Both the position numbers and the translations under genes were made by a program. Under the pieces are notes generated by a model. The model worked only from the letters and a program-made list of their open reading frames with translations. It was not told the origin of the DNA and did not search any database. DNA of 64,000 nucleotides from Melittangium boletus DSM 14713 (GTDB lineage: Bacteria > Myxococcota > Myxococcia > Myxococcales > Myxococcaceae): contig NZ_CP022163.1 in assembly GCF_002305855.1 (NCBI RefSeq), forward strand, positions 7,003,765 to 7,067,764, read 5' to 3'. Within the stretch, counting starts at the first letter, position 1; each line of letters opens with the position of its first letter. Of this stretch, positions 16,133-54,519 are shown one piece after another.

Positions 16133-16212
16133 GTCCGTTGTCGCGTGCGGCGCGACCCCTGTAAGGGTCCGGCGAGTGCTTCGTCAGCCCAGGTGAAAGG
16201 AGCGATTTTCAC

Positions 16213-18582
<2,370 letters not shown>

Positions 18583-18591
18583 CCTCCGCCT

Positions 18592-19194
18592 TCAAGATCG
18601 GGCGCTCTGGCACGAGCAGTCCAGACACCCGCGTGCGGCACACGCGCCGCACGTGTGCTGGAGCCGCGTCTTGAGTGCCTGACGGGCCCGGTGCAGGCGG
18701 ACCATGGCGTTGTTGGGGGTGACTCCCGCCTCTCGCGCCACCTCGGAGACCGGGTGCTCCTCCAGGTCCACCCGCCGCACCATCCGTGCGTACTCGGGCT
18801 TGAGCGAGGGCAACACGCCGTGCAGGCACGCACAAACCTTCGGTTCGGCTCCCGGCTCGGGCTGTACCGCGACGGGCTCCCGGGCCTCACGCTCGAGCAC
18901 CCGGGATTCCGCGTTCCGGTGCCGATAATGGTCGGTCACGGCGTTGCGCAGCAGACGGTAGAACCACGCCACCGCGCGTTCCGTGTCCCGCAGCGATGCG
19001 CCTTTCTCGATCGCCTTGACGTACGCGGCCTGGAGCAAATCCTCCACCACCCTCTCGCTGTCCACCCGGCTCGCCAGGAAGGAGGCGAATCGCGCCCGAT
19101 GGCTCAACAAGGTTCGCAGAACCTCCTCATGCACCGGGGCTTGCTCCGATCCGGTGTCGGACTCGGCGATGGAGGGGAGGGGCGGATTTCTCAT
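18592..19194 (-). CDS. ECF sigma factor with C-terminal Cys-rich extension (CorE-like, putative copper-responsive)
   Basis: Sigma-70 region 2 ('DLLQAAYVKAIEKG...WFYRLLRNAVTDHYR') and region 4 ('VDLEEHPVSEVAREAGVTPNNAMVRLHRARQALKTRL'). C-terminal 'HTCGACAARGCLDCSCQ' plus internal 'VCAC'. Convergent with the Cu-ATPase. Confidence 0.7.
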   Translation of the reverse strand: MRNPPLPSIAESDTGSEQAPVHEEVLRTLLSHRARFASFLASRVDSERVVEDLLQAAYVKAIEKGASLRDTERAVAWFYRLLRNAVTDHYRHRNAESRVLEREAREPVAVQPEPGAEPKVCACLHGVLPSLKPEYARMVRRVDLEEHPVSEVAREAGVTPNNAMVRLHRARQALKTRLQHTCGACAARGCLDCSCQSARS

Positions 19195-19269
19195 GTCGAT
19201 GGGGAAGTATAACGAGGGGCATGGCCCCGGAACCATGCGCGGCCGCTCAGCACGCATGCGAGCAGGACG

Positions 19270-20886: not shown

Positions 20887-20888
20887 AC

Positions 20889-20921
20889 GGATAGGAATTT
20901 ATCCCAGAGGATAGGAAATCG
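20889..20921. promoter_or_regulatory. Candidate RtcR upstream activating sequence: palindrome GGATAGGAATTTATCC plus repeated GGATAGGAAAT half
   Basis: 20889-20904 is GGATA-N6-TATCC inverted repeat. 20909-20919 repeats GGATAGGAAAT. ~60 bp upstream of the sigma-54 promoter. Confidence 0.4.
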
Positions 20922-20955
20922 GGCGCGGAAAGACGCTCCCCCTGGGGAGAAGCGT

Positions 20956-20971
20956 TGGCACGCGCCCTGCT
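20956..20971 (+). promoter_or_regulatory. Sigma-54 (-24/-12) promoter for rtcBA
   Basis: TGGCACgcgccCTGCT matches TGGCAC-N5-TTGCW (GG at -24, GC at -12). ~55 bp upstream of the rtcB ATG. Confidence 0.6.
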
Positions 20972-21025
20972 CTACCCCTCCCCGTGCCCGGCGGGACCGG
21001 GCGGACACTTCCGAGGGAGCAGGCC

Positions 21026-22261
21026 ATGAAGACCCAGCGCGATTACGAAGTCCTGACGAACGAGGCGGGTGGGGTGCCCATCAAGGCGTGGACGGTGGGG
21101 GTGCCGTTCGAGGACGAGGCCAAGAAGCAGCTCCGGGCCATGGCGACCCTGCCCTTCGTCCACAAGTGGGTGGCGGCGATGCCGGACGTGCACCGGGGCT
21201 TCGGTGCGACGGTGGGGAGCGTGGTGGCGACCGCGGGCGCGGTGATTCCCGCCGCGGTGGGCGTGGACATCGGCTGCGGGATGATCGCCGTGCGCACCAC
21301 GCTGCGCGCGGAGCAGTTGCCGGACTCGCTCGCCGGGGTGCGCTCGGCCATCGAGCGCACGGTGCCTCATGGCCGGACGGATAACGGCGGCCGCAACGAC
21401 AAGGGCGCCTGGCGCGAGGCCCCCGCTGCCCACCAGGAGGCCTGGGCCCGGCTGAAGCCCGGCTATGACGCCATCCTCGAGAAGCACCCGCGCCTGGGCC
21501 GTGGCCCGGACCTGGGTCACCTCGGGACGCTCGGGACGGGAAACCACTTCATCGAGGTGTGCCTGGATGAGGCCGGCCACGTGTGGGTGATGTTGCACAG
21601 TGGTTCGCGCGGTGTGGGCAACCGCATCGGAAGCCACTTCATCGAGCTGGCGAAGGAGGAGATGAGCCGCTTCTTCATCCACCTGCCGGAGCGGGATCTG
21701 GCGTACCTGCCCGAGGGGACGGTGCACTTCCAGGACTACCTGCACGCGGTGAGCTGGGCGCAGGACTACGCGGCCACCAATCGCGAGCTGATGATGCGCT
21801 CGGCGGTGGAGGCGTTGAAGGCGAGCGGGGAGCTGCCGGAGTTCTCGCTCACCGACGCGGCGGTGAACTGCCACCACAACTACGTGTCGCGCGAGCACCA
21901 CTACGGAAAGAACGTGCTCGTGACGCGCAAGGGGGCGGTGCGGGCGCGGGAAGGGGACCTGGGAATCATCCCCGGCAGCATGGGGGCGCGCTCGTACATC
22001 GTGCGCGGAAAGGGAAACCCGGAGTCCTTCCATTCGTGCAGCCACGGCGCGGGCCGGGTGATGTCGCGCGAGGCCGCCAAGCGGCACTTCTCGCTGGAGG
22101 ACCACGCCCGGGCGACGGCGGGCATCGAGTGCCGCAAGGACGCGGACGTCATCGACGAGACGCCCGGGGCCTACAAGCCCATCGATGCGGTGATGGCGGC
22201 GCAGGCGGGGCTGGTCGACATCGTTCATACCCTGCGCCAGGTGGTGTGCGTGAAGGGGTGA
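21026..22261 (+). CDS. rtcB: RNA-splicing ligase RtcB
   Basis: 'DIGCGM', 'GTGNHFIE', 'MLHSGSRGVGNRIGSHF', 'NCHHNY', 'HSCSHGAGR'. ATG 21026 with GGGAG RBS. Confidence 0.9.
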   Translation: MKTQRDYEVLTNEAGGVPIKAWTVGVPFEDEAKKQLRAMATLPFVHKWVAAMPDVHRGFGATVGSVVATAGAVIPAAVGVDIGCGMIAVRTTLRAEQLPDSLAGVRSAIERTVPHGRTDNGGRNDKGAWREAPAAHQEAWARLKPGYDAILEKHPRLGRGPDLGHLGTLGTGNHFIEVCLDEAGHVWVMLHSGSRGVGNRIGSHFIELAKEEMSRFFIHLPERDLAYLPEGTVHFQDYLHAVSWAQDYAATNRELMMRSAVEALKASGELPEFSLTDAAVNCHHNYVSREHHYGKNVLVTRKGAVRAREGDLGIIPGSMGARSYIVRGKGNPESFHSCSHGAGRVMSREAAKRHFSLEDHARATAGIECRKDADVIDETPGAYKPIDAVMAAQAGLVDIVHTLRQVVCVKG

Positions 22262-22410
22262 GCGGAGTGTGCCTGGAACCCTGACCCGGGAGGACGCCAT
22301 GAGGGGATAAAGACATCGAGACGCCCGCTCCCTCCGAGACTTCGGTCAGTAGGATGGGGGAGCGGGCGTCGCTACGTGCGGGCAAGGGGATTCACAGGGA
22401 GGGAGACGAC

Positions 22411-23427
22411 ATGGTTCGCATCGATGGTTCGAAGGGAGAGGGGGGCGGGCAGGTCCTGCGCACGTCGCTGGCGCTGTCGCTGGTGACGGGGACGCCGTTC
22501 CAGATGGAGAACATCCGCGCGGGGCGCTCCAAGCCGGGACTGTTGCGCCAGCACCTGACGTCGGTGAAGGCGGCGGCGGCCGTGGGCGGGGCGGAGGTGG
22601 AGGGCGCGGAGCTGCATTCCCGGACGCTGACGTTCCGGCCCCGGAGCGTGAAGCCGGGGGACTACCACTTCGCGGTGGGCACGGCGGGGAGCGCCACGCT
22701 GGTGTTGCAGACGGTGCTGCCGGCGCTCCTGAGCGCGAGCGGGCCGTCCACGCTGGTGCTGGAGGGCGGGACGCACAACCCGGCGGCGCCGCCGTTCGAC
22801 TTCCTGACGAAGGCGTACCTGCCGCTGGTGCGGAAGATGGGGCCGGTGGTGGAGGCGTCGCTGGAGCGGCCCGGGTTCTTTCCCGCGGGGGGAGGGAAGT
22901 TCCGCGTGAGTGTGCGGCCCGCGCCGCTCGAGCCCCTGCACCTGTTGGAGCGGGGGAAGGTGGTGCGCCGGCTGGCCACGGCGATGGTGGCGCAGGTGCC
23001 GTTCGACGTGGCTCAGCGGGAGCTGACGACGGTGGGGCGCACGCTCGGGTGGAGCGCGGAGGAGCGCCGGGTGGAGGAGGTGAAGCGCTCGGCGGGACCG
23101 GGAAACGTATTGTCGCTGGAGGTGGAGAGCGAGCACGTCACCGAGGTGTTCACGGGCTTCGGGGAGCGGGGTGTGCGGGCGGAGGCGGTCGCCGAGGCGG
23201 TGGCGGAGGAGGCCCGGGTCTACCTGGAGGCCGAGGTGCCCGTGGGCCCGCACCTGTGTGATCAGCTGTTGCTCCTGCTGGCCCTGGCCCGGGGAGGCTC
23301 GTTCCGGACGCTGCCCCTCGAGGGACATGCGCTCACCCAGATGGAGACGTTCGCGCACTTCACCGATGTGCGGGTCACCGAGACCCCCATCGCCCCCCGG
23401 GTGAGGGAAATCGTGGTGCGCGGTTGA
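22411..23427 (+). CDS. rtcA: RNA 3'-terminal phosphate cyclase RtcA
   Basis: 'IDGSKGEGGGQVLRTSLALSLVTGTPF...AVGTAGSATLVLQTVLPAL...HLCDQLLL' is typical of RtcA. The listed ORF begins earlier, at a spurious in-frame ATG. Confidence 0.85.
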   Translation: MVRIDGSKGEGGGQVLRTSLALSLVTGTPFQMENIRAGRSKPGLLRQHLTSVKAAAAVGGAEVEGAELHSRTLTFRPRSVKPGDYHFAVGTAGSATLVLQTVLPALLSASGPSTLVLEGGTHNPAAPPFDFLTKAYLPLVRKMGPVVEASLERPGFFPAGGGKFRVSVRPAPLEPLHLLERGKVVRRLATAMVAQVPFDVAQRELTTVGRTLGWSAEERRVEEVKRSAGPGNVLSLEVESEHVTEVFTGFGERGVRAEAVAEAVAEEARVYLEAEVPVGPHLCDQLLLLLALARGGSFRTLPLEGHALTQMETFAHFTDVRVTETPIAPRVREIVVRG

Positions 23428-23667: not shown

Positions 23668-25695
23668 CTACGGGGAGGCGGGAGCGGTGGACACCTTGGG
23701 CAGATCCAGTGCGGGATTGCGTGAGAAGAAGCCCATGGGCAGCAGCTTGAAGCCCGCGTGCGCCACGGGCATGACCGGCCACTCCTCGGGGCGCGGTGTG
23801 TGGGTTACCCCGAGCGTATACCAGACCACCACGTCCTCGTTGACCAAGGGCTGGTTGTCTCGCACCCAGGTGGGCAGCCCGTCGCCCCCCTCGCTCTGAT
23901 TGGGATAGGCACCGGCGGCATACAGCTCCCCGGGGACATGGCGCGTGGCCCAGAAGTGGTGATCGATGAAGCCCGCGCGCTTGCGCGACACGTTCTCGGG
24001 CGCGGCGAAGGGCACGGTGTTCTCTCCTGGCACGAGCACATAGCCCGTGGGACCGCCCAACGCGTTGCGCTCCTGGGGGTTCTGGATCACCCACCGCCGG
24101 GCATTCACCAGGCTCATGTCCCGCTGGGACTGGGCCTCGCTCGCGAGCGGTTCCATGCGCATGGTGAAGGCATTTCCCGCGGGGTTGGCCGCTCCTCGTG
24201 GCAGGGGATGGGTGTTCATCTCCAGGATGGAGTTGCGAGGCCCATCCACGTCGAAGTCGAGCCGGAAGTTGAAGAAATGCTGGTGATGGACCGCGATCAC
24301 GTCCTTCTGCACCAGGTGACCGTACAGCTCATGCTCGGCGTGCTCGGACTGGGGAGTCATGCCCTTGGCCAGCATGATGCCCGTCAGTTGGACGTCGACA
24401 TCGATCGAGCCATCTTGTTTGAAGATGTAATAGAGGACGTAGTCATAGTTGGCGACCGCGACCCCGTACGCCACCACCAGCTCACTCCCCCGCCGGGACT
24501 CGTTGCGCTTCGTCTCGTAGTCGTAATGCTTCCACAGGATGCCGCCGTCGCGCTCATAGAGGGCGAGCGCACGAGGGATTTCGGAGACCTCGCCGGAGTT
24601 CTTGGCCTGGGCCGCCGGGAGGAAGGTGGCGCTGGCGGGGACGTCCACGCCGGGCTCGAGCGGGCTGAGATAGTTCCCAAAGCCATACTCTCCCACGTCG
24701 AAGGCGCTCCTCCAGGACCAGGTGTCCTCGGGATCTCCATAGGGAACCACCATCTCGGAGAGGGAGAGCCGGTGGAGGATCTTCCGCTCCCGGCCCTGGT
24801 CCGTATAGGTGACCTGGTGGAGCACCGCGCCCTCTCGCGGGTGGGCTTCCACGCGGAAGCGCCAATTCTGCCAGCGCACTTCATTTCCTGTCAGGGTGTA
24901 GTTCACGCCCTCCGGGTGGGTCACGACAACGGGGTGTGGACGGGGGCGAAGCACCCCCACGGACGCCTCGTCATAAGCCCCCGCGTCCTGGGGAATCGGA
25001 ATGTCCCCCCGGTCGATGACCTCCACTACCTCGCGCTTCGTGAGATCCAGGAGCGCGAGCACGCCCTCCACGGGCCGAGCGTAGGCATTGCCACTGTCTC
25101 CCTTGAAGAAGGGAAAGATCCTCATCAGGCGGTGATCCGCGCGCTGAGGATCCAGGGAGGGTCCCGGCGCCCAGGTGTCCAGATGGATGTGCTCGGGGTG
25201 GGTCACGCCCCGCCGCTGCATGGCGGCTCGCCAGCGCTCATCCTGCCACACCAGCTCCTTACCCAATTCCTTGTCCCGAGTGCCCAGGGACGGCTGCACA
25301 CCGGGAACCTGATTCCAGCTTTCCACGGCCGTGGGAGGCGTCAGCCGGACGCGCGCCTCGAAGGTCAGGTTGCGCGCGAAGTCATAGACCACCACGAAGG
25401 CGCGGCGCGCAACGGGAGTCCCCGCCGCGAAGGCATCCAATTCCTCCTTGGAGGGCTCCCACGGCGAGACCAGGGGAAACACACTGTTCTCATTCACGTG
25501 CCCCTGCTCGCGCAGGAGCTGGATCGCCTGGGCGTACTCCGCCACCGTGAACGCATCCAACGGGTGGGGTGAAGGAGCCGGTTGCGTGGAGGATTCACCC
25601 TCCGGTGGCGCCACCGGCTCGGGTTTCTTGGCACACGAGAGGCTCGAGAGGGTCAATAGACCCGAGAGCAGGACGCACCGCGTCAGTGAATACAT
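23668..25695 (-). CDS. Copper amine oxidase (TPQ-containing primary-amine oxidase), lipoprotein
   Basis: 675 aa. Lipobox 'LLTLSSLSCAKK'. TPQ consensus 'VANYDYVLYY' (N-Y-D/E-Y). Copper-ligand His residues ('HHQHFFNFRLDFDVDG', 'VTHTPRPEEWPVMP'). Confidence 0.85.
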   Translation of the reverse strand: MYSLTRCVLLSGLLTLSSLSCAKKPEPVAPPEGESSTQPAPSPHPLDAFTVAEYAQAIQLLREQGHVNENSVFPLVSPWEPSKEELDAFAAGTPVARRAFVVVYDFARNLTFEARVRLTPPTAVESWNQVPGVQPSLGTRDKELGKELVWQDERWRAAMQRRGVTHPEHIHLDTWAPGPSLDPQRADHRLMRIFPFFKGDSGNAYARPVEGVLALLDLTKREVVEVIDRGDIPIPQDAGAYDEASVGVLRPRPHPVVVTHPEGVNYTLTGNEVRWQNWRFRVEAHPREGAVLHQVTYTDQGRERKILHRLSLSEMVVPYGDPEDTWSWRSAFDVGEYGFGNYLSPLEPGVDVPASATFLPAAQAKNSGEVSEIPRALALYERDGGILWKHYDYETKRNESRRGSELVVAYGVAVANYDYVLYYIFKQDGSIDVDVQLTGIMLAKGMTPQSEHAEHELYGHLVQKDVIAVHHQHFFNFRLDFDVDGPRNSILEMNTHPLPRGAANPAGNAFTMRMEPLASEAQSQRDMSLVNARRWVIQNPQERNALGGPTGYVLVPGENTVPFAAPENVSRKRAGFIDHHFWATRHVPGELYAAGAYPNQSEGGDGLPTWVRDNQPLVNEDVVVWYTLGVTHTPRPEEWPVMPVAHAGFKLLPMGFFSRNPALDLPKVSTAPASP

Positions 25696-25843
25696 ATCTT
25701 TGGATGTCTCCCAAGCACTTCATCCGCATCACAGCCGGTGCATCTCACACGCCGCCGCGGCACGAACCATCACGCGAACGGCATCTGATGACTGTCATGA
25801 CAATCGAGGTGCCCAGGCGTCCGGCGCCGAACGGTGGGGCCCT

Positions 25844-29976: not shown

Positions 29977-30636
29977 TCAGAAGTGGGTGACGCGCACCTC
30001 GGGCTCCGGCGCGTCGTCCGGAACGCCCTCGCGCTTGCGCTGGCAGGCCGCGCAGCACTCCGCCCAGGGCACGAGCTGCAGGCGCTCCAGGGGAATGGCG
30101 CCCTGGCAGTCCTCACACCGGCCATAGGCGGAGGGATTCGTGCCGAGCTTGTTCAGGGCGGCGCGCACGCGGGGCAGGAGCACATCGTTGCGCTCCTCGC
30201 CGGACTCCGCCGCGTCCTGGAGCTGCTCGCGCTGCTCTTCGTCGATCGCCGACCAGACCCATTCCGGCGGTGGCTGGGCCGTGAGGATGTAGTGGAGGAC
30301 ATGCAGCTGGTGCTCGGCCTCGCGGCGCTGGGCGTCGCGGCGCAGGGCCTGCAGCTTCGGGTTCTCCATCATCCGCGACAGGCGCTTCTGCACGTCCCGC
30401 CGCATCCCCGCGTCCCGGGTGATGACGTCGATGTAGGCCTCCGGGGTGACGCCCCGGGGTTCGCAGATCTGCTGCAGGACGCGCTCGAAGATGGGCTCGA
30501 TGCCCGCGGTGGCGGCGGTGGAAATCCACGTGGTGGCGGAATTCAGCGCGTCGAGCGACGAGAGGACGGACTGGTGGATGTCCTTCCACTGCGGCGAAGG
30601 GCCTTCTGGAGAACCGGTCGTCATGCCTGGGGCCAT
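29977..30636 (-). CDS. DksA/TraR-family C4 zinc-finger protein (long form)
   Basis: C-terminal 'YGRCEDCQGAIPLERLQLVPWAECCAACQ' is the DksA/TraR C4 finger. ATG at 30636 (alternative at 30624). Confidence 0.6.
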   Translation of the reverse strand: MAPGMTTGSPEGPSPQWKDIHQSVLSSLDALNSATTWISTAATAGIEPIFERVLQQICEPRGVTPEAYIDVITRDAGMRRDVQKRLSRMMENPKLQALRRDAQRREAEHQLHVLHYILTAQPPPEWVWSAIDEEQREQLQDAAESGEERNDVLLPRVRAALNKLGTNPSAYGRCEDCQGAIPLERLQLVPWAECCAACQRKREGVPDDAPEPEVRVTHF

Positions 30637-30827
30637 ATAACCACAAGGGTGCCGGAAGACACACGGACCCTTGGCTGGAGGGGCCCGCTCTCTTGGTTGC
30701 TCATGGGTCGCACCAGGATGGCTCACGCCCGCGTCGGTTCGGAGCGGCCGGATGCTCCATTCTGGCCGCGCCCGAGCCCTTTCGGGACGGGGCCTCGGAG
30801 GGAGACGGGCCCGGCACGGGGCTCGCA

Positions 30828-33134
30828 ATGCCCGGGGGTGAACCTCCATCCCACATAGGTGTTGGCGTGCCCCCCTCGAATTCCGGCAGCGAAGCCATCC
30901 AGCGCATCTCCCTGAAGAACCGCGAGTACGCCTACATCGAGGACGCCAACCGGGGCGTGGTGCTGGTGGAGATCGGCCCCAAGGTGCTCACGCTGGAGGC
31001 CCACCTCACCCTGGTGATGAAGAGCCGGATGGTGGAACTGGGCACGGGGAGTTGGTGCGTGGTGCGCAACCCCGTGGTGCGCGCCGAGGGCCGGGTGGCG
31101 CTGGATGACTTCGGGCAGGCGCGCATCGCGGTGGGAGACCGGGAGGTGCGCGTGGGCCCCCAGGTCTTCCCCCTCTACCCGGGCGAGGAGCTGGAGGGGG
31201 AGATCGCCGCCGAGTACGTGCTGGGGGTCAACGAGGCGCTGCGCCTGCGCGCGCTCACGGCCTTCACGGAGGAGCCGTCCTCGGGGAGCGCCCCGCGCCG
31301 CCGCGAGGCGGGTGACGAGTGGTTGATGCGGGGGCCGGGCCGCTACGTGCCCAACGCGGCGGTGGTGGTCGTCTCGGACGAGAAGGCGCGGGTGCTCAAG
31401 GAGACGGAGTATTGCGTCGTGCTCAACCCGGTGGACCGCGCCACGGGGCGCATCCAGGAGGGCCGCCGCAAGGTCATCTCGGGGCCGGACGTGTTCTTCC
31501 TCGAGCCCGGCGAGGAACTCGAGGGCGACGTGCGCCGCAAGCACGTCCTGTCGGAGATGCAGGGGCTCAAGCTCCAGGCCCTGGATGAGCTCTCCGAGCC
31601 GGAGGAGGGCGGTGCTCCCCGGGCGCGCAGGGCGGGCGACACGTGGATCGTCCGGGGGCCACGCACGTACGTGCCCAGCGAGAAGGTGCTCATCCTCAAG
31701 GAGATCTCCGCGCTGTCGCTCGGGCAGAGCGAGGGCCTGTACGTGAGGGACTTGCGCTCGGGCAAGGTGTCGCTCGTGCAGGGGCCCTGTCAGTTCATGC
31801 CCGAGGCGCACCAGGAACTGCACGAGAAGCGCCTGTCCCCCGAGGCCGAGGCGCTGCTGGGGCTCGTTCCGCCGCCGCCGGCCGTTCAGGGCGAGGGCAA
31901 GGTGCCGCGTCCGATGCCGGAGAAGGTGGACCGCACGCGCGCCATCGTCCTGCGCATCGAGGACAACACGGCGGTGCTCATCAATGACTTCGAGACGAAC
32001 CACGCGCGGGTGGAGTTCGGACCGTCGAAGGTGATGCTGCGTCCGTACGAGGACGTGACGGTGCTGGACCTGTCGGGAGGCACGCCCAAGAAGGCGAGGC
32101 AGCTCAAGGTGTTGATGCTCCGGTTGGGGCCGGACTTCGCCACGGATCTGTTCGAGGTGGCCACGCGCGACCATGCCCGGCTGCGCATCAAGCTCTCCTA
32201 CAAGTGGCAGTTCGACGTGGAGGGGGACTCGGAGAAGGACAAGGCCATCTTCCGGGTGAACGACTTCATCGGCTACGTCTGCGAGAACCTGGCCTCGCGC
32301 ATCCGCCAGGTCGCCGCGGAGAACGACTTCGAGACCTTCCACAAGACGGCCAGCGTGCTCATCCGCCGCGCCATCTTCGGGGTGGACGAGGGGGGCAAGC
32401 CGCGCAAGGACCGGCTCTTCTCCGAGAACCAGCTGCGCATCATCGACATCGACATCAAGGACATCGCGCCGGTGGACGACAAGACGGCCCTCAAGCTGCG
32501 CGAGGCCATCGACACCAACATCCAGATTCAGCTGGACGCATCGCGTCAGGAGGCGCAGGCCGCCGCCGAACTCAAGCGCATCCGCAGCGAGGAGGAGAAG
32601 CAGCTCGCGGACATTTCCAGTCACCGCAAGGCGGAGGCCGAGCGCCAGTCCCTCATCGAGCTGCAGAACCGCAACAACCAATTGGCCACGTTGAGCCGGG
32701 CGAAGGTGGAGGCCGAGGCGCAGCTCGAGAAGGCGCGGGTGGAGAGCGAGGAGGCGCTGGCGCGCGCGGAGGCCGAGGCCCGGGCCTCGCGCATCCGCAC
32801 CGAGGCGGAGCTGGAGCGCGAGCGCAAGATGACGGAGATGACGATGGAGCGGCAGAAGCGGCTCAACGACCTGGAGGTGGAGCGCCAGGCGCGGCTCTCC
32901 GAGGTGGAGGCCGGGCAGTTCCGTCAGCGGGTGGAGGCGCTCGGGGGTGGGGAGAACTTCGTCAAGGCCGTGGCCGCCCAGGCGCAGGCGGCCGTGGTGG
33001 GCGGGCTGGACAAGGTCGTGTTCCTGCCCAGCGGCTCCAACCTCAACCTCTTCGACTCCATGCAGGGGCTGCTCGGGCCGGGTGGGGCGGGCGCGGCGCG
33101 TCCCGGTACGGGCGGCGGCGGCGGCGGCAATTAG
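30828..33134 (+). CDS. Major vault protein (MVP) homolog
   Basis: ~770 aa. Tandem MVP-repeat domains ('YAYIEDANRGVVLVEIGPKVLTLEAHLTLV', 'VVRNPVVRAEGRVALDDFGQARIAVGDREVRVGPQVFPLYPGEELEG' recurring ~55 aa apart). Then a shoulder domain and a long cap-helix coiled coil ('ELKRIRSEEEKQLADISSHRKAEAERQSLIELQNRNNQLATLSRAKVEAEAQLEKARVESEEALARAEAEARA'). Gly-rich tail. Start uncertain (ATG 30828 or a GTG ~30873). Confidence 0.8.
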   Translation: MPGGEPPSHIGVGVPPSNSGSEAIQRISLKNREYAYIEDANRGVVLVEIGPKVLTLEAHLTLVMKSRMVELGTGSWCVVRNPVVRAEGRVALDDFGQARIAVGDREVRVGPQVFPLYPGEELEGEIAAEYVLGVNEALRLRALTAFTEEPSSGSAPRRREAGDEWLMRGPGRYVPNAAVVVVSDEKARVLKETEYCVVLNPVDRATGRIQEGRRKVISGPDVFFLEPGEELEGDVRRKHVLSEMQGLKLQALDELSEPEEGGAPRARRAGDTWIVRGPRTYVPSEKVLILKEISALSLGQSEGLYVRDLRSGKVSLVQGPCQFMPEAHQELHEKRLSPEAEALLGLVPPPPAVQGEGKVPRPMPEKVDRTRAIVLRIEDNTAVLINDFETNHARVEFGPSKVMLRPYEDVTVLDLSGGTPKKARQLKVLMLRLGPDFATDLFEVATRDHARLRIKLSYKWQFDVEGDSEKDKAIFRVNDFIGYVCENLASRIRQVAAENDFETFHKTASVLIRRAIFGVDEGGKPRKDRLFSENQLRIIDIDIKDIAPVDDKTALKLREAIDTNIQIQLDASRQEAQAAAELKRIRSEEEKQLADISSHRKAEAERQSLIELQNRNNQLATLSRAKVEAEAQLEKARVESEEALARAEAEARASRIRTEAELERERKMTEMTMERQKRLNDLEVERQARLSEVEAGQFRQRVEALGGGENFVKAVAAQAQAAVVGGLDKVVFLPSGSNLNLFDSMQGLLGPGGAGAARPGTGGGGGGN

Positions 33135-46903: not shown

Positions 46904-48442
46904 TCAGTTCTCCTCGCCCTTGTTACGGCGCCGGGGCGCCTTGTCCAGCGATTCCGCCCGGCCGGCCTCGTGCACCAGCAGGGGCGAGAAGAAGCAGTCC
47001 TTCTTGGTGTACTCGTCGAAGGAGAAGGCGAAGCGGTAGCTGGCGGCCGCGCGCTGGTTGCAGTCGGTGCGCTCGCAGAAGCGGCAGGAGATGCCACTGG
47101 GGACCGCGTCCTTGCGCAGGTCCGTGGTGGGCAGCCCATAGGCCAGGTACTTGGCGTTCTCCGCGTGGGTGCCCAGACCGATGGAGTAGGCCGTGCCGCG
47201 CACGATGGAGCCCTCGATGGGTTGCAGCTGCACCTTGGCGAAGCAGAAGTACGACGTGCCATCCGGCATCATCGAGTACTGCCGGGTGAGCTGCGAGGGA
47301 TTGAGGAAGGCCAGGTGCACGGCCCACTTGCCGCACGAGCCGCCGCCCGAGGCGAACTTGATGCCCGTGCCGCTGTAGCGCTTGGAGATGTTGCCCGCGA
47401 TGTCCGAGCGCAGGAAGTGGAAGGGCAGGCCGCGGCGCTTGGGATCCGACAGGTTGCACAGGCGGTGGGCCACCGTCTCGTACGTGGTGCCGAAGAGGTT
47501 GGACAGGAGCTCCACGTCGTAGCGCGTGCGCTCCACATCCTTGAAGAACTCCCCGTAGGGCAGCATCAGCGCGCCCGCGAAGTAGTTGGCCAGGTGCACC
47601 TTGATGAGCCGCAGCGTCTCGGCGTGCCGCGTGCGCGCCGCGCCGACGATCCGCTCCACCAGCTTCTCCTTGTCCAGCATCAGGATGCCGATGGAGGCGG
47701 CGAGCTGGAACTTGAGCGGCTGCTCGGTCAGGTCCGGCGAGAGGGTGAGCTCCTGGTTCTCCGCGTCCAGGCGGCGCACCACCGAGGAGCCGCTGGAGGC
47801 GGCCTCCAGGCGCACCCGGTAGCCGAAGCGCTCCTCCAGCAGGGGCACGAGCTGGGGGCTCGACAACAACCGCCCGAGCTTGAAGTCGCGCCGCATCGAC
47901 TCGGCCTGTTCCTCCAGCTCGGGGAAGTAGTTGTGGTGGGACTCGAGGAAGTCGCTCACCTCGTCGAAGGGGGAGTAGTCGAAGCGGGGGCCCGCCGAGC
48001 TGCCCGGCGTCGCGTTCATCCGCGCGCTCTCCTCCACGTTGAGCTGCGCGAGCACGTTCTCCAACTGTGTGCGCGTGTTCTTGTAGAGGTTGAAGAGCGC
48101 GGCCACCGTGCCGGCGAGCTTCGGCTCCGCGGACAGGCTCTGCAGGGACTCCGAGTCGATATCCAGGCTCTTGAGCAGGGGCTCGTCCAGCAGCTTCGCG
48201 AGCGCCTCGTCCACGCGGCCCTCGCCCAGGGTGGACATGAACTGCTCGGGATCCTGATCGAAGTAGCGCAGCGCCTTCCACAGCAGCGGGAAGGGCATGA
48301 CGCGCTTGCCCTTCTCGATGAGGTTCAAGTAGGCGGGGGACACCCCCAGGTCCTTGGCCGCATCCGTCTGCTTGATGTTGCGAGCGAGCCGCAAGCCCCG
48401 GAGTTTGAGGCCCACGTTCGCGTTCAGTGCGTTCTCGTTCAT
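46904..48442 (-). CDS. XRE-family HTH regulator with C-terminal DUF2083/ImmA-like domain (ScfR/PrpR-like)
   Basis: 'VGLKLRGLRLARNIKQTDAAKDLGVSPAYLNLIEKGKR' is an HTH_XRE. The long C-terminal region has Cys/His residues ('CRFCERTDC'). ATG at 48442. Confidence 0.7.
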   Translation of the reverse strand: MNENALNANVGLKLRGLRLARNIKQTDAAKDLGVSPAYLNLIEKGKRVMPFPLLWKALRYFDQDPEQFMSTLGEGRVDEALAKLLDEPLLKSLDIDSESLQSLSAEPKLAGTVAALFNLYKNTRTQLENVLAQLNVEESARMNATPGSSAGPRFDYSPFDEVSDFLESHHNYFPELEEQAESMRRDFKLGRLLSSPQLVPLLEERFGYRVRLEAASSGSSVVRRLDAENQELTLSPDLTEQPLKFQLAASIGILMLDKEKLVERIVGAARTRHAETLRLIKVHLANYFAGALMLPYGEFFKDVERTRYDVELLSNLFGTTYETVAHRLCNLSDPKRRGLPFHFLRSDIAGNISKRYSGTGIKFASGGGSCGKWAVHLAFLNPSQLTRQYSMMPDGTSYFCFAKVQLQPIEGSIVRGTAYSIGLGTHAENAKYLAYGLPTTDLRKDAVPSGISCRFCERTDCNQRAAASYRFAFSFDEYTKKDCFFSPLLVHEAGRAESLDKAPRRRNKGEEN

Positions 48443-48766
48443 CGCCGCGTCCTGGAGCGGGGGCCCACGTGTCCTTCCGGGGCACCTCCGTTCCATCCAC
48501 TGTGCGGACGCATTTACCGATTTGCAATAAACGTTTTCAGCCGAAACCCCCCTTGTCCTCGAACCGACGGTGCACGCCGGGCCTGCGCGGACTTCCTCTT
48601 GGGCCGCGTCTAAGCCGTTGATTCACCAAGGGTTGTTGGAAAGAGGACGAGCCGTGGCCCCCGTGGAGGGCGGCTGTCAAATTTTACCAGCGCGGTTTAC
48701 CAGCGGGGAGCGTTGACGCCCCGCGGCACGGCGCGGTCCCGCGACGCGTGCGCTCGCGCGGACCCT

Positions 48767-48792
48767 GTAACCTGAAATTCCCGCATGGCGTA
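48767..48792 (+). promoter_or_regulatory. Candidate ECF-type promoter (GTAACC-N16-CGTA) upstream of the MNIO precursor gene
   Basis: 'AAC' -35 core and 'CGT' -10 core with 16-nt spacing, ~45 bp before the ATG at 48839. A tandem 13-bp repeat TTTACCAGCGSGG sits at 48683-48708. Confidence 0.35.
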
Positions 48793-48838
48793 CGGGTTCA
48801 CGAGCGAACCCCCCGCCTTCCGCGGGGGATTTCCCGCC

Positions 48839-49114
48839 ATGACCCGAAAGGCCACACCCATGAACGTCAAGACCCTGACCGCTCTCGTTGGAACCCTCTC
48901 CCTCGGTGCTCTCGCCACCGGCTGTGCGACCGCGAAGCCCGCGGCCGCCCCCTCCGAGCAGGGCTCGGCCACCGTGAACAGCGCGGCCGCCACCCCCGAG
49001 AAGGCCGCCGAGGGCACCTGCTCCGGCAAGGCCTCGCCCACCACCGAGAAGGCCGCCGAGCACGGCTGTGGCGCGGGCGGCTGCGGCGCCAGCGGCTGCG
49101 GCGGCAAGAAGTAG
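48839..49114 (+). CDS. Small secreted Cys/Gly-rich peptide, candidate MNIO (DUF692) precursor
   Basis: 91 aa (or 84 from the ATG at 48860). Signal/lipobox 'MNVKTLTALVGTLSLGALATGC'. Core 'EGTCSGK...EHGCGAGGCGASGCGGKK'. Ends 99 bp before the DUF692 gene. Confidence 0.55.
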   Translation: MTRKATPMNVKTLTALVGTLSLGALATGCATAKPAAAPSEQGSATVNSAAATPEKAAEGTCSGKASPTTEKAAEHGCGAGGCGASGCGGKK

Positions 49115-49212
49115 TCAACCTCCAGGCCCTCGGCGACGCCGGGGGTCGTTTCATCCGGGCGGTGGGGAAGTCTTGTCCCGCCGCCCGTGTCTTTTTCCCC
49201 GAGGGAGACGGC

Positions 49213-50061
49213 ATGCCGGTGGGTGATGCGTACGGACGGAAGTGGAAGCCGCTGGGAGTGGGGATCGGGCTGCGGCGCGAGTTCTACACGCTCCTGCCGG
49301 AGACCTCCCGGGCGCTCGACTGGGTGGAGATCATCCCCGAGAACTTCCTCACCCTGGGGGGCCGTCCCCAGCGCGCGCTGGACGCGTGTGGAGAGCGCTG
49401 GACGCTCCTGCCCCATGGCGTGGCGCTCAACGTGGGCGGGCCGGATCCCCTGGACGAGGCCTACCTCGCCGGGCTCCGGGCGCTGGTGGAGCGCGTGGAT
49501 GCGCCCTTCTTCTCGGATCACCTGTGCTACGCGCGGCTGGGCGGGGCGTACCTCTACGATCTGCTGCCGTTGCCCTTCTCCGAGGAGGCCGTGGAGCACG
49601 TGGTGCCCCGGGTGCGCGAGGCGCAGGCGCGGGTGGGCCGGCCCTTCCTGCTGGAGAATCCGAGCTACTACGCGCACATGCCCGGCGGCACCCTGGCGGA
49701 AGCGGACTTCCTGCGGCACGTGGTCGAGCAGGCCGACTGTGGCCTGTTGCTGGACGTGAACAACGTGTACGTGAACGCGTGCAACCATGGCTATGACCCG
49801 CGCGCCTTCGTGGACGCGCTGCCGTTGGAGCGGGTGGGGCAGCTCCACCTGGCGGGGCACGAGCGCCAGCCGGACGTGCTCATCGACACGCATGGCGGGC
49901 CCGTCTGCGACGAGGTGTGGTCGCTCTACCGCTATGTGCTCGAGCGCACGGGGCCGGTGTCCACGTTGATCGAATGGGATCAGCACATCCCCTCGCTGGA
50001 CGCGGTGCTGGACGAGGCGGATCGGGCACGCGCGCTGATGGCGCGGGTGGAGGCGCGATGA
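49213..50061 (+). CDS. DUF692 multinuclear non-heme iron oxidative enzyme (MNIO; MbnB/BufB/HvfB family)
   Basis: ATG with GGGAG RBS. TIM-barrel DUF692 pattern 'LGVGIGLRREFY...LDWVEIIPENF...HGVALNVGG...FSDHLCY...FLLENPSYY...LLDVNNVYVNACNHGYD...LHLAGHE'. Confidence 0.85.
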   Translation: MPVGDAYGRKWKPLGVGIGLRREFYTLLPETSRALDWVEIIPENFLTLGGRPQRALDACGERWTLLPHGVALNVGGPDPLDEAYLAGLRALVERVDAPFFSDHLCYARLGGAYLYDLLPLPFSEEAVEHVVPRVREAQARVGRPFLLENPSYYAHMPGGTLAEADFLRHVVEQADCGLLLDVNNVYVNACNHGYDPRAFVDALPLERVGQLHLAGHERQPDVLIDTHGGPVCDEVWSLYRYVLERTGPVSTLIEWDQHIPSLDAVLDEADRARALMARVEAR

Positions 50062-50774
50062 AACCCGGACTGCGCGGCTTCTTCGACTCGATGGAGAGCT
50101 ACTTCACGGACCCGGCGCCGGAGGCCCTGGAGCGCCTGTACGCGGCGCATCCAGGCTGGGACGCCCCCCGTTCGCGGGTGGCGCTCTATGGCCAGATGGT
50201 GCGTCACCACGGCGATGCCACGCTCGACAAGCTCTACCCCCGGGTCCGCGGGTGCGTGGACGCGGAGACCTGGACGGCGCTGCTCCGGGCCTACGCGGCG
50301 TCCCGTCCCGCCCGGCCCTTCGAGATGAACCAGGTGGGCGAGGGGTTCGCCGGATTTCTCGCGGACGAGGCCCACGCGCGGGGCCTGCCGGACTTCCTGC
50401 CCGCGCTGGCGCGCTTCGAGTGGACGGACTTCGCGGTGTACATGTCCAGGGAGGAGGTGCCGGCGCGGGTGGAGCGGCTGACGGTGAACCCCACGCTGGC
50501 GATGCTGGAGCATCCCTTCCAGCTCTGCGCCTGGCTGCGGGGGGGCACCCCGGAGCGGCCGGCCCCGGGACAGGAGCTGGCGCTGCTCTGGAGGCACCCG
50601 GAGCGGCTGGTGACGATGTTCCTCGCGGCGGACGACCGCGCGCTGCTGGTGCTCAAGATGGCGGTGGAAGGACTCACGCCGGAGCAGGTGGCGGCGGCCA
50701 CGGGCGTGGACGCGCGCGCCATCCACGACGCCGTGGCGGCCCGTGTGGAGGAAGGCCTCGTGCTGGCGCCTTGA
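50058..50774 (+). CDS. DUF2063-family MNIO partner protein (BufC/HvfC/MbnC-like)
   Basis: ATG overlaps the DUF692 stop (ATGA). 'FFDSMESYFTDPAPEALERLYAAH...LYGQMVRHH' is a typical DUF2063 N-terminus. Confidence 0.8.
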   Translation: MKPGLRGFFDSMESYFTDPAPEALERLYAAHPGWDAPRSRVALYGQMVRHHGDATLDKLYPRVRGCVDAETWTALLRAYAASRPARPFEMNQVGEGFAGFLADEAHARGLPDFLPALARFEWTDFAVYMSREEVPARVERLTVNPTLAMLEHPFQLCAWLRGGTPERPAPGQELALLWRHPERLVTMFLAADDRALLVLKMAVEGLTPEQVAAATGVDARAIHDAVAARVEEGLVLAP

Positions 50775-50825: not shown

Positions 50826-53271
50826 TCAGTTCAGCTTCACCCGGCAGACATTGCCGCTGGACGTGGTGGTGCAGGTCAGGCCATTGCAGCACGCGGAGCC
50901 GCCGCCGCAGGGCTGATCCTTGCCGGAGCACGGCGGACGGCACGAGCAGTTGTCGCCCGAGCAATCCCCGCCCGTGGTGTCATCCAGGCAGCGCAGACCA
51001 TCGCAGCAGGGCGCCACGGTCGAGCACTTCTGGAAGGCGGGCGCGCACTGGGGAATGGGCTTGCACGCGCACGCGCCCTCGATGTCGCAAGGCAGGGGCG
51101 GATCCCGGTTGAGCTGCACGCACTTGAGGCCGTTGCAGCAGGTGGCGCCGGCCGAGTCGCAGCCCTCGTCCACCGTGGAGCAGCCGTTGCTCACCAGGTA
51201 CTGCGCCCACTGGGCGATGTGGTTGGACGTGGTGATGTCCTGGAAGGGCAGGGCGAAGGCCACGTACGAGCCGTCCTCGCCCGCGAGCACCTTGTCGGGA
51301 TCCACCGCCGCCATCCACAGGAGAGTGCTCTTGCGGGCCTCGGACGCGTTGCTGGCGTCGGCCGTCTTGCGCAAGCCGTAGTTGCGCGAGGACGAGAACG
51401 TCAACCACATCAGCCGGCTGGTGTCCCCGGTGTTGCCCTGGGTCACGAAGGGGCTCCACTTCGGGTAGCTGTTGGTGAGCGTCTGGAGGTAGGCGCCCGC
51501 GCCGTCCTTGTCATCCGTGATGCCGGGTTTGTTGGCGTTCTTGAGCTCCACGAGGGCGGCGTTGGCCTCCAGCTTCGCGGCCCAGAGCGTGGCGGTGGGA
51601 TCCGTGTCCCCGTTGCAGTCCTGGCTGGTGTCGCTGTTGATGGGGCAGGTGGACTCGTTGAACACGAGGAACGCGTTGTCCGGGGCGATGGCGGGGTAGT
51701 AGCGGTGCTTGGCGTAGGGGTTGCTGCCCGTGAGCGGCACGGGAGGCACCACCGTGAGGGGCGCGCTCCAGCTGCCCGCGGTCTCCCGCACCATCTGGAT
51801 GGAGCCCGTGAACGTCCGCCGGTTCTGCGGGGGATAGCCGGTATAGCCCACGGACGTGTAGGCGATCGTCTTGCCGTCGGCGCTCCAGTCCGGATGGGTG
51901 GCGGGGTTCTGGCTCGTGCCCGTGTTGGCGATCTGGCTCTCGAAGGCGCCCGTGTCGCCGTTGAAGAGCAGCAGGCCGAACTTCGTGGCCTGCTCGGCGC
52001 TGTAGACGCCGACGAACTTGCTGCCATCCGGATTCCAGGACTCGAAGGCGCTCTGGTACTTCGACGTCAGGGCGATGCCCGCGTCGGACGGCGTGCCGCC
52101 ATCCCCGTCGGGGGTGTAGGTGGAGAGATCCTTGATGAGCGCGAGCTGGCCCTCGTTGCGGCCCAGGGTCGGATCTCCCTCCACCGCGGCCACCAGCTTC
52201 TTGCCGTTGCGGCTCAGCGAGTGGCAGCCCACGCAGCCCACGCCGCTGGTGTTGATGTTGTTCTTCGTGAGCATCGACGTGGCGGTCTGGGGCCCGGTGC
52301 CCGCGAAGTCGTAGCGCGTCACGCCGACCTGATCCGGCTTGGTGGTCCAGTAGTAGAGCGCGCCCTTGATCTCCGCGCGGGCGAACTGGAGGGAGATGGG
52401 ATCGGACACACCCACCGACGTGCCCGCGTCATCCGTGGCGCGCAGCGCGAGCGTCACCAGCTGGCCACCGCGGTTGCTCTCCGCGAGGAACTTCCACACG
52501 GTCTCGTCCGGCGTGTAGATGCAGCCCCGGGTGATGCCCGTGGGCAGGGTGACTCCCGAGGGCAGGTAGCAGCGCAGGTAGACGCGCACGTCGGTGATGT
52601 CGTTGGTGAAGCGCAGCTCGAACAGGGTGTTGGTGGTGGGGCCGGGCGTGAAGTGGATCTCCAACTGCCCGAGGTTCGGCGGCACCATGACCTTGTCGGC
52701 GGGGTAGACGAGCGACGGCTTGCGGGCGGGATCCACCGTTCCACCGAACTTCGAGTCCGCGTTGGCCGGCACGTCCGCGGAGCCCGGGGCTGGATCCGCC
52801 GTCTTCTGGGAGAGCTGGAGCAGGAGCTCGGTGGAGATGGACAGGGTGTCCACGCGGGCATGCACGGCGCTCTTGCCGCCCACGGTGGTGCTGGAGGTGA
52901 AGGTGGGTCCGGAGAAGGTGCCCAGCCGTGTGTCCTCGATGCTGAAGAAGGCCTGGGACGTCAGATCCTCGGAGTGCCCGTCGGAGTAGATGCCGAGCAC
53001 GGAGAACTTCTGCGTGGCCGCCGTACTGCCCGAGGCCTTGAGGATGGGGTTGGGAGGCGAGATGGACAGCGAGTCGAGCGTGATGCCTCCGTCCGGGCTC
53101 GTGTCTCCGCCGTCACGGCCGTCTCCCGTGCCACTCCCCGCGTCGTTTCCGTTTCCGCCACCCGTGCCGCTATCGAGCGTCCCCGGGGTGGGGTCGGCGC
53201 CGCCGCAAGTACAACCGGACAGCGTGGCCACTGCCATCAGGAGTCCAAGTAACCAGGTCTTCTTCCACATG
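50826..53271 (-). CDS. Large lipoprotein with beta-propeller-like central region and three C-terminal knottin-like (C-x6-C-x6-CC-x4-C) repeats
   Basis: ATG at 53271. Lipobox '[15 protein letters not shown]'. TolB-like '[13 protein letters not shown]' and '[12 protein letters not shown]'. C-terminus has three 'C...C...CCNGL(K/T)C' / 'CCDGLRC' units. Confidence 0.7.
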
Positions 53272-53430
53272 GCCCGTAGCGTAGCGCCATTTCCTGGCCC
53301 TCGCCCGGGGGTTGGCCGGGGGGGCGCGGTTTTGCCGGGGCGGACGCATCGGTGGTGCTTCGTGCTTCCCCGGAGGAGGCGTTCGGCGCAATCTCCCGCT
53401 CGGTCGTTCTTCCCGAAGAGAGGCCTTGTC

Positions 53431-54519
53431 ATGCGCGTCATCAACTTCAATGCCGGCCCCGCGGGGCTGCCTCTGCCCGCGCTCGAGCGGGCGAAGGAGG
53501 AGCTGCTCGATTTCAAGGGCTCCGGCATGTCCATCATGGAGCACAGCCACCGGGGCAAGCAGTACGACGCCGTCCATGAAGAGACGATCTCGTTGCTCAC
53601 CGAGCTGCTGGGCATCCCCGACACGCATCAGGTGCTCTTCCTCACGGGAGGCGCCTCGCAGCAGTTCGCCCAGCTCCCGATGAACTTCCTGCGCCCCGGC
53701 GAGAGCGCGGACTACCTGATGACGGGCGTGTGGAGCGAGAAGGCCTACGACGAGGCGAAGCTCGTGGGCCAGGCGCGCATCGCCGCCACCGCGGTGCAGC
53801 CGGACAAGAAGTACGTGCGCGTGCCCCGGCAGGACGAGTTCCAGCTCGACCCGAAGGCGGTCTACGTCCACCTGACGAGCAACAACACCATCTACGGCAC
53901 CCAGTGGCACACCTGGCCCGAGGTGGGGGACGTGCCGCTCGTCGCGGACATGAGCTCGGACTTCATGTGGAAGCCCGTGGACGTGAGCCGCTTCGCGTTC
54001 ATCTACGCCGGAGCCCAGAAGAACCTGGGTCCCTCTGGCGTGCTCATCGCCGTGGTGCGCAAGGACTTCATCGCCCGGGGCCGCCAGGACATCCCGAAGA
54101 TCTTCCGCTACTCCACCCACGCGGACAGCAACTCGCTCTACAACACGCCGCCCACCCTGGCCATCTACCTGTGCCGCAACGTGCTCTCCTGGGCCAAGGA
54201 GCTGGGCGGGCTCACGCAACTGGAGAAGCGCAACCGGGAGAAGGGGGAGTTGCTGTATGGCACCCTGGACAAGCTCTCGGGGTTCTACCGGGCGCCGGTG
54301 GAGAAGGACTCGCGTTCCTACATGAACGCGGTCTTCTACCTGCCCACGCCGGAGCTGGACGACGCGTTCGTGGCCGCCGCGACGCGCTCCGGCATGGTGG
54401 GTCTCAAGGGCTACCGCAGCGCGGGGGGCATCCGGGCCTCGCTCTATAACGCGGTGTCTCCGGATGACGTCCGGACACTCGTGTCCTTCATGGAGGAGTT
54501 CGCCCGGAAGAACGGCTAG
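53431..54519 (+). CDS. serC: Phosphoserine aminotransferase
   Basis: '[14 protein letters not shown]', '[10 protein letters not shown]', '[13 protein letters not shown]' (PLP-lysine region). Confidence 0.9.

Follow-up and report, generated by a model that had tools for sequence, protein, structure and literature searches.

Do three genes that lie in line in the genome of Melittangium boletus DSM 14713, encoding a small cysteine-rich peptide, an MNIO (DUF692) enzyme and a DUF2063 protein, form a biosynthetic operon, and if so, what would it make and what would switch it on? The genes are on the + strand at 48.7-50.8 kb of the stretch analysed here (contig NZ_CP022163.1, positions 7,003,765 to 7,067,764). 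This window is 64 kb long with a G+C content of 69%, and all coordinates below are window positions. Analogy with characterised relatives suggests, with a probability of about 0.68, that the locus is a minimal three-gene operon of captophorin type (bufferin/oxazolin-like) for a ribosomally synthesised peptide with post-translational modifications (RiPP), and that it makes a lipid-anchored metal chelator. It is most likely an uncharacterised myxobacterial branch of the bufferin/oxazolin ("captophorin") system, not a new kind of system.

Operon organisation and conservation

The operon comprises three genes:

48860..49114, + strand: precursor gene, 84 aa; signal peptide residues 1-21, core residues 23-84
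49213..50061, + strand: MNIO (DUF692) enzyme gene, 282 aa; PF05114 match
50058..50774, + strand: DUF2063 partner gene (PME type 1), 238 aa; PF09836 match

The MNIO stop codon and the partner start overlap in an ATGA at 50058-50061, which points to translational coupling. An initial annotation of this DNA, made from the letters alone, had proposed an MNIO/DUF2063 RiPP-type operon at these positions, and both the Pfam matches and the ATGA overlap bear this out.

Using the window MNIO as probe, we fetched 80 loci of 12.8 kb each. The precursor-MNIO-DUF2063 order was syntenic across essentially every Myxococcaceae/Archangiaceae genome among them (>50 genomes). The nearest loci were those of Cystobacter fuscus, where the MNIO is 87-88% identical and the neighbouring RamB-like regulator 94-95% identical. 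An MNIO, a DUF2063 partner with a putative RiPP recognition element (RRE) and a Cys-rich precursor thus stand within one cluster, the combination by which captophorin clusters are recognised. No further Cys-rich open reading frame (ORF) was linked to the operon.

The precursor is a predicted lipoprotein of a Ser-Cys motif family

The precursor ORF translates as MNVKTLTALVGTLSLGALATGC followed by ATAKP...EGTCSGK...EHGCGAGGCGASGCGGKK. Alternative upstream starts lie at 48839 (91 aa) and 48785, and the start was set at ATG 48860 because all orthologues begin MN[VI]K. A ribosome-binding element stands before this ATG, and GAAAGGAA recurs ahead of the MN[VI]K start among the precursor orthologues:

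48846..48851, + strand: Shine-Dalgarno-like GAAAGG, 8 nt 5' of ATG 48860

Lipidation was predicted by rule-based inspection ([LA]-[AT]-G-C with the Cys at residues 15-35). The peptide has a basic n-region (K4), an uncharged h-region TLTALVGTLSLGALA and a lipobox, L-A-T-G-C22, whose Cys (codon 48923-48925) falls between residues 15 and 35. Among 30 homologues G21 and C22 were invariant, and M1, N2, K4, V10, G11, L13-L15, L18, A19, G21 and C22 made up the near-invariant positions of the signal peptide. Two sources name precursor homologues "lipoprotein". The small residue at +2 (Ala/Ser, not Lys) suggests that the peptide may be sorted to the outer membrane, going by the sorting rules of M. xanthus.

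Besides the lipobox Cys, the precursor has four core Cys (C54, C70, C75 and C80) in the contexts E-G-T-C-S, E-H-G-C-G, A-G-G-C-G and A-S-G-C-G; the first core Cys of the family has been lost from it. A search of 5.8 billion proteins returned 42 relatives, those with names coming from Melittangium, Archangium, Vitiosangium, Cystobacter and Myxococcus. In the fetched loci, a 70-100-aa ORF of this family was found directly upstream of MNIO-DUF2063 in >50 Myxococcaceae/Archangiaceae genomes, which upholds the earlier choice of this small Cys/Gly-rich lipoprotein-like ORF as a precursor candidate related to HvfA peptides.

Across the family the core sequence varies freely apart from the Cys motifs. 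The shared context, drawn from 138 core Cys in 36 members, is G-[GA]-E-G-S-C-G-[GA], with Glu at -3 in 57%, Gly at -2 in 52%, Ser at -1 in 56% and Gly at +1 in 67%; Lys occupies -1 at just 16 of the 138. Judged by sequence, the family E-G-S-C-G is the EGKCG frame of oxazolin, fontiphorin and gonophorin with Lys replaced by Ser, Gly or Thr.

Profile searches placed the family at a distance from its relatives. A family profile run against 1.84 billion cluster representatives found 33 proteins, the weakest of which (E=1e-5 to 4e-4) were classical KEGKCGEGKCG proteins. The family is therefore a small one that stands apart, with the EGKCG family as its distant neighbour. The HvfA models matched 11 of 40 family members at all (best E=3.8e-4). 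Assignment of the precursor by profile models, as the initial annotation had envisaged, gave no match to DUF2282 or any other Pfam family and a weak match to HvfA (19 bits against a cut-off of 95). To call the precursor "unusual" was an overstatement, as MNIO precursors with a Sec signal or lipobox, the lipidated oxazolin NedA among them, are in print (PMC13056109).

The MNIO and its partner

The MNIO matched PF05114 over model positions 1-262 of 263 (E=3.3e-103; 345 bits, gathering threshold 25). Its sequence has all of the motifs SDHL, LEN, LDVNN, HLAGH, DTH and EWD, which align with 3BWW, 8HCI and MbnB. The enzyme passed the NCBIfam BufB equivalog model (NF050167) at 321.6 bits, above the cut-off of 310, and the nearest solved structure was 3BWW, a DUF692 protein of Histophilus somni (E=2.9e-59).

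Two sites bear on how the enzyme would recognise its substrate. In FonB, Arg15 and Arg16 flank the motif Glu, and the Arg pair was proposed to bind it; the residues around the Cys are contacted by the position that follows the catalytic Asp249, which is occupied by Phe in Lys-Cys and by Asp in Cys-Lys enzymes (PMC13097082). The window MNIO has Arg21-Arg22 (GIGLRRE) at the sites of FonB R15/R16, and Asp-Gln (LIEWDQ) at those of D249/F250; in the alignment with 3BWW its Gln stands opposite the Phe of ERDF. Asp-Gln was present in 70 of the 78 MNIO genes with a readable motif, in a set of loci biased toward such enzymes by one fetch pattern that contained EWDQ. The control locus of Cys-Lys type, gammaproteobacterial L079, encodes an Asp-Asp MNIO, as described (PMC13097082). 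At motif position 3 FonBC itself accepts Ala, Arg or Thr, while the Cys has to be followed by a small residue (PMC13097082). From these residues we infer that the MNIO fits a precursor of this family: the Arg-Arg pair is kept, and Gln takes the place of the Phe of Lys-Cys and the Asp of Cys-Lys enzymes.

The partner matched PF09836 in its N-terminal domain (E=1.5e-12; 48.1 bits against 27.2). Its C-terminal 180 aa (residues 60-238) matched the N-terminal part of SbtM, a thio(seleno)oxazole maturase (E=2e-18), and there was a weak match to the Neisseria DUF2063 structure 3DEE. A DUF2063 domain followed by a C-terminal domain is the architecture of PME type 1 (PMC12452194).

A conserved candidate promoter of ECF16 type

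Upstream of the precursor gene lies a candidate promoter of the extracytoplasmic function (ECF) type, from which transcription is predicted to start a few bases 3' of the CGTA:

48767..48792, + strand: ECF-type promoter; -35 GTAACC at 48767-48772, 16-nt spacer, -10 CGTA at 48789-48792

This ECF-like element had been picked out in the initial annotation, and the comparison strengthens it. A search of both strands of the 64 kb found GTAACC-N16-CGTA at a single site, with 0.05 expected from shuffles, and no near-matches stood beside other genes of interest in the window. On the + strand upstream of the operon, cTGTAACC-N15/16-CGTA(T) was present in ~40 of 56 orthologous loci with a variable spacer sequence, and it occurred almost nowhere else within those 12.8-kb loci.

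Among the orthologous loci the motif lies either 80-110 nt or ~750 nt 5' of the precursor gene; at ~750 nt it precedes an extra YceI-like gene, and the operon then begins with that gene. This secreted YceI-like protein (PF04264), encoded between promoter and precursor so that the operon has four genes, was seen in L027 (4917-5549) and in Corallococcus, Hyalangium and Pyxidicoccus.

The motif matches the promoter type of ECF16/SigF-NrsF systems (PMC3511200, PMC3420878), its -10 CGTA being one base different from the consensus GTAACC-N16-CGAA. A sigmaF site of that form was mapped by amplifying cDNA 5' ends (5' RACE) upstream of both Caulobacter bufferin operons (PMC3511200). The operon motif also agrees with the ECF16 consensus given for EcfF of Bradyrhizobium and BcrS of Brucella, EcfF accepting CG(t,a). 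L079 served as positive control: here an ECF sigma and its NrsF anti-sigma (PF06532) are encoded beside the MNIO operon, and GTAAC-N16-CGAA stands before nrsF and 70 nt before the precursor gene. The distance from promoter to precursor gene is the same in the window operon as in this NrsF-linked locus. A homologue search with the L079 NrsF gave at least 120 matches, and those listed were all close relatives of Steroidobacteraceae type, none myxobacterial.

Other non-coding elements

Three further elements were noted around the precursor gene:

48683..48708, + strand: tandem repeat TTTACCAGCG[C/G]GG, two 13-nt copies, TTTACCAGCGCGG and TTTACCAGCGGGG, with 12/13 bases identical
48807..48831, + strand: inverted repeat with 10-nt arms and a 5-nt loop, within the predicted 5' leader
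49156..49197, + strand: terminator-like hairpin between precursor and MNIO genes, 12-bp stem with 10 G-C pairs, then TGTCTTTTTC

Nearly all orthologous loci have a near-identical hairpin (CGGGCGG.GGG...CCCGCCGCCCG with a T-rich tail) in the same place. The claim of a structure rests on conservation and position, because only 3 of the 12 pairs covary. We infer that the hairpin is a partial terminator that raises the ratio of precursor to enzyme; such an effect of partial termination is common in RiPP operons. An Rfam scan of 48400-49300, covering the leader and the precursor-MNIO spacer, gave no match.

The tandem TTTACCAGCGSGG repeat described in the initial annotation is present, but among the closest Cystobacter relatives its conservation is partial: the four nearest loci keep just the second TTTACC, together with GGCTGTCAAA upstream. 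On account of this partial conservation the repeat was rejected as an operator. It may belong to a conserved block, GGCTGTCAAA...GTTTACC, of the intergenic region shared with the divergent RamB-like regulator.

Proposed mechanism

The mechanism proposed here is modelled on relatives that have been characterised (PMC11626156, PMC13097082, PMC13056109), and every chemical and physiological step is drawn from them. A SigF/ECF16-class sigma factor, freed by envelope metal or oxidative stress, would transcribe the operon from GTAACC-N16-CGTA, and the hairpin after the precursor gene would terminate part of the transcripts, so that more precursor than enzyme is made. The MNIO, presumably iron-dependent and bound to its DUF2063/RRE partner, would act in the cytoplasm and turn the four core Cys, each with Glu-x-small before it and Gly/Ser after it, into 5-thiooxazoles (-4 Da per Cys). 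The modified peptide would be exported via Sec, diacylglycerylated at Cys22, cleaved by signal peptidase II and acylated at its N-terminus (Lgt/LspA/Lnt). The product would be a lipid-anchored, intrinsically disordered chelator of Cu(I) or other soft metals on the periplasm-facing membrane surface, where it would buffer excess metal.

Of the modifications that the initial annotation had expected, 5-thiooxazole is the one now assigned, not oxazolone-thioamide (PMC13097082). Relatives of the window peptide carry 5-thiooxazoles and bind copper (PMC11626156, PMC13097082), and by this analogy the window peptide may bind copper as well. A lipidated oxazolin, NedA, and its signal peptidase II route have been described (PMC13056109).

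Alternative explanations

A number of observations weigh against the reading of the locus as a captophorin operon of this kind. Most precursor Cys have no flanking Lys, and substrate recognition could differ for that reason. The precursor scored 18.9-19.2 bits against the HvfA cut-off of 95 (NF050188; also NF050137), below both models; the MNIO reached 291.5 bits on HvfB (NF003818; cut-off 360) and the partner 62.8 bits on HvfC (equivalog cut-off 142). Asp-Gln also occurs in myxobacterial MNIOs whose precursors are of another type, and its frequency may be inflated by the EWDQ fetch pattern, which biases the set of loci. The M. xanthus clade is without the promoter motif. No sigma/anti-sigma (DUF1109) pair was linked to the operon in the annotated parts of the window or within ±6 kb in the myxobacterial loci, and neither the window nor the myxobacterial loci examined have a DoxX gene linked to it. 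Finally, the hairpin shows compensatory change at only 3/12 pairs, conservation being mainly of sequence, and in many genomes the T-tract that follows is weak.

The biosynthesis might proceed as proposed and yet answer to, and bind, something other than copper, the trigger or ligand being oxidative/hypochlorite stress or another soft or toxic metal (Cd, Cr(VI), Au or Zn). The ECF16 system of Caulobacter responds to chromate and cadmium, that of Bradyrhizobium to H2O2 and singlet oxygen, and that of Brucella to HOCl. In several genera a YceI-like gene shares the promoter and the transcript of the operon, and the literature treats the metal preference of EGKCG products as unsettled. However, copper is bound by every MNIO-PME1 product that has been characterised, and Cu, but not Fe, Zn or Mn, induced the operons of Caulobacter; we regard a non-copper trigger as rather unlikely, while keeping it in view. 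The lack of Lys around the Cys raises another doubt, namely that the small lipoprotein is no substrate at all, or that a different modification (e.g. oxazolone-thioamide or another Cys rearrangement) is installed. Non-RiPP lipoproteins do occur in bufferin clusters, the precursor falls below the HvfA cut-offs, and MNIO chemistry is diverse, with Gln here at the specificity site. Such an outcome is nonetheless quite improbable given the strict precursor-MNIO-partner order, the retention of the Cys motifs while the rest of the core drifts and an MNIO score that passes the equivalog cut-off of BufB; 5-thiooxazole is what every characterised MNIO-PME1 pair installs, and the operon has no other linked Cys-rich ORF.

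Regulation of the operon was the other matter in dispute. The initial annotation had linked the operon to three copper genes, all of which are present in the window:

16165-18582: P1B ATPase with YHS and HMBD domains, convergent with the CorE-like sigma gene
18592-19269, - strand: CorE-like (ECF44-type) sigma with a KVCAC (CxC) linker and a C-terminal Cys-rich tail, CGACAARGCLDCSC
23668-25719: copper amine oxidase

The link was not supported. The three genes are 23-30 kb from the operon and the operon motif is absent near all of them. The intervening stretch encodes, among others, an RtcR-RtcB-RtcA RNA repair module, RuvC, YebC and a homologue of vault protein. The amine oxidase just uses copper as a cofactor. 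Membership of the operon, with the ATPase, in a regulon of the CorE-like copper-sensing sigma draws on the CxC linker and C-terminal Cys-rich domain that define ECF44 (PMC4937300), on the adjoining ATPase gene and on the AAC/CGT core shared by many ECF promoters. We consider it highly improbable, since 30 kb separate the sigma gene from the operon, neither it nor the ATPase gene has a GTAACC-N15-17-CGTA-like site nearby, and the operon motif is nearly identical to the ECF16 consensus. A bolder proposal would have the operon serve, in Cystobacterineae, as envelope effector in an ECF pathway of DUF1109 type (CarQ/CarR or an unlinked SigF-like paralogue), with the lipid-anchored Ser-Cys thiooxazole peptide as a membrane copper sink and Asp-Gln as a third substrate-specificity class beside Lys-Cys and Cys-Lys. 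CarQ/CarR responds to copper and singlet oxygen, and CarR is described as a six-helix anti-sigma of the DUF1109 family, which copper can inactivate as well (PMC8156234, PMC9304148); the literature consulted mentions no other myxobacterial DUF1109 anti-sigma. This proposal, taken whole, is speculative and unlikely.

Neighbouring genes and related loci

The divergent RamB/ScfR-like regulator (46904-48496) was rejected as regulator of the operon: it adjoins the operon just in Cystobacter-like genomes, and in most genera the two are separated by the gene of an HExxH protein, a YceI gene or both. The HExxH (HEMLHL/HELLHL) protein, ~470 aa, secreted and without a Pfam match, is encoded there in most genera (for example L005 4131-5555, L042 3874-5553 and L027 3344-4822); it is absent from the window. 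Upstream of the RamB/ScfR-like gene (- strand), a block at 48497-48560, ACTGTGCGGACGCnTTTACnGATTTGCAAT...CGTTTTC, is almost invariant in five genomes and is probably the promoter or operator of that gene. On the other side of the operon, 50826-53624 (- strand) encodes a 932-aa predicted lipoprotein with a PD40/TolB-like repeat and three C-terminal Cys-rich modules with CCxGLxC. This convergent gene was rejected as a cluster member, being on the opposite strand and beside the operon only in Archangium/Vitiosangium loci.

A second, paralogous MNIO operon was found in Archangium minus (L040 5588-5980) and Cystobacter fuscus NCWS (L045 5683-5970). Its long lipoprotein precursor is built of 17-18-aa repeats, GGEASCGEGSCSGKATQK, with two Cys each, which mirror the 17-residue double-EGKCG repeats described for type-1 oxazolins. 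The paralogous operon has neither the intergenic hairpin nor the GTAACC promoter. In metagenome-assembled genomes of other Myxococcota, the gene ahead of the MNIO encodes a ~200-aa lipoprotein with (A)GCPA repeats, a C-terminal CxxCH...FVYTQVP and no Pfam match (L061 5361-5981, L066 5381-5983, L073 5386-5988, and similar in L062-L072). Several of these loci carry GTAACC-N15-CGTA ~75 nt upstream. The (A)GCPA lipoprotein is a possible further precursor class.

Elsewhere in the window, the RNA-repair module (19270-23427; RtcR, a sigma-54 activator, with RtcB ligase and RtcA cyclase) lies directly upstream of the CorE-like sigma gene, which has no adjacent anti-sigma gene. An 894-aa ORF at 30450-33134 (+ strand) contains Vault, Vault_2, Vault_3 and Vault_4 domains and the shoulder domain of Major Vault Protein (E down to 2e-44), and is a bacterial homologue of this eukaryotic vault shell protein. 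A radical SAM protein (PF04055; 59633-60694, - strand) lies beside an ORF with a weak tRNA_anti-like OB-fold match, with no obvious link to the operon.

Significance

Bufferins were reported in 2024, as was oxazolin, whose structure was revised in 2026; the captophorin name and the lipidated MNIO products, including NedA, date from 2026. Our literature search found nothing linking Myxococcus DUF692/MNIO genes to the window locus. Four features appear undescribed so far: the Ser-Cys motif family with an invariant lipobox, the core-genome synteny of its operon across two myxobacterial families, a conserved ECF16-type promoter without a linked sigma gene, and a conserved attenuator-like hairpin between precursor and MNIO genes.

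Bufferin/oxazolin-type metallophores are emerging among the most widespread bacterial copper defences, and the characterised examples are all from Pseudomonadota. The social, predatory myxobacteria keep a core-genome version with a Ser-Cys context, a predicted lipid anchor, a matching change at the enzyme specificity site and a promoter of the Caulobacter ECF type. The locus offers a compact four-site substrate for the study of cysteine selection by MNIOs, what is predicted to be a natural membrane-tethered metallophore, and a starting point for finding the sigma factor that underlies a myxobacterial copper response known for long but not explained. Should the locus act just as its relatives do, it will be a useful but incremental addition.

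Comparison with known systems

Close parallels are the Lys-Cys captophorins (PMC11252979, PMC13097082), namely HvfABC of Haemophilus, fontiphorin FonABC and gonophorin, which share the precursor-MNIO-DUF2063 (PME1) order; fonABC is likewise a minimal three-gene cluster. As in these systems, the window product is predicted to be an exported disordered peptide with repeated E-G-x-C-G units, and the enzyme keeps the Arg-Arg pair and the catalytic Asp, with the H. somni protein 3BWW as nearest solved MNIO. Unlike them, the window precursor has Ser, Gly or Thr at motif position 3, four core Cys and a signal of the signal peptidase II type, and the MNIO has Gln in place of Phe after the catalytic Asp. 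The curated HvfA, HvfB and HvfC cut-offs are all missed, and the host belongs to Myxococcota and not Pseudomonadota.

The Caulobacter BufABCD/SigF-NrsF systems (PMC11626156, PMC3511200) resemble the window operon in the BufB score above cut-off, the PME1 partner, a precursor exported by Sec (predicted here) and GTAACC-N16-CG(T/A)A upstream of the precursor gene. They differ in that the window precursor is neither DUF2282 nor Buf_6/12Cys and has no Pfam match, and in that the operon is without a DoxX gene and without an adjoining sigF-nrsF pair. Bufferins are also small folded periplasmic proteins, whereas the window product is predicted to be lipid-anchored and unstructured. In the RiPP-lipoproteins, DybA and the lipidated oxazolin NedA of Neisseria dentiae (PMC13056109), an MNIO-modified core stands behind a lipobox signal peptide, as is predicted here, and the predicted order is the same, cytoplasmic modification followed by Lgt/LspA/Lnt processing. 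NedA has canonical EGKCG repeats, however, and DybA belongs to the ChrH subfamily with a different chemistry.

Methanobactin MbnABC belongs to the same enzyme superfamily at a distance (E=7e-12), and its Cys-derived heterocycle and sulfur ligand bind copper, as those of the window product would. Unlike the window operon, it has a leader peptide with no Sec signal, an MbnC partner, an oxazolone-thioamide and a secreted role in copper acquisition. The 2025 landscape paper (Antoine et al. 2025, PMC12452194) mentions hundreds of unclassified Cys-containing ORFs with signal peptides upstream of MNIOs. It also describes the putative "adjamnio-3" precursors as unstructured, Sec-signal peptides with Cys motifs, found beside MNIOs that form a small cluster of their own; their partners are bona fide DUF2063 proteins and their gene clusters bufferin-like, as at the window locus. 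Going by this description, "adjamnio-3" could be the family to which the window precursor belongs.

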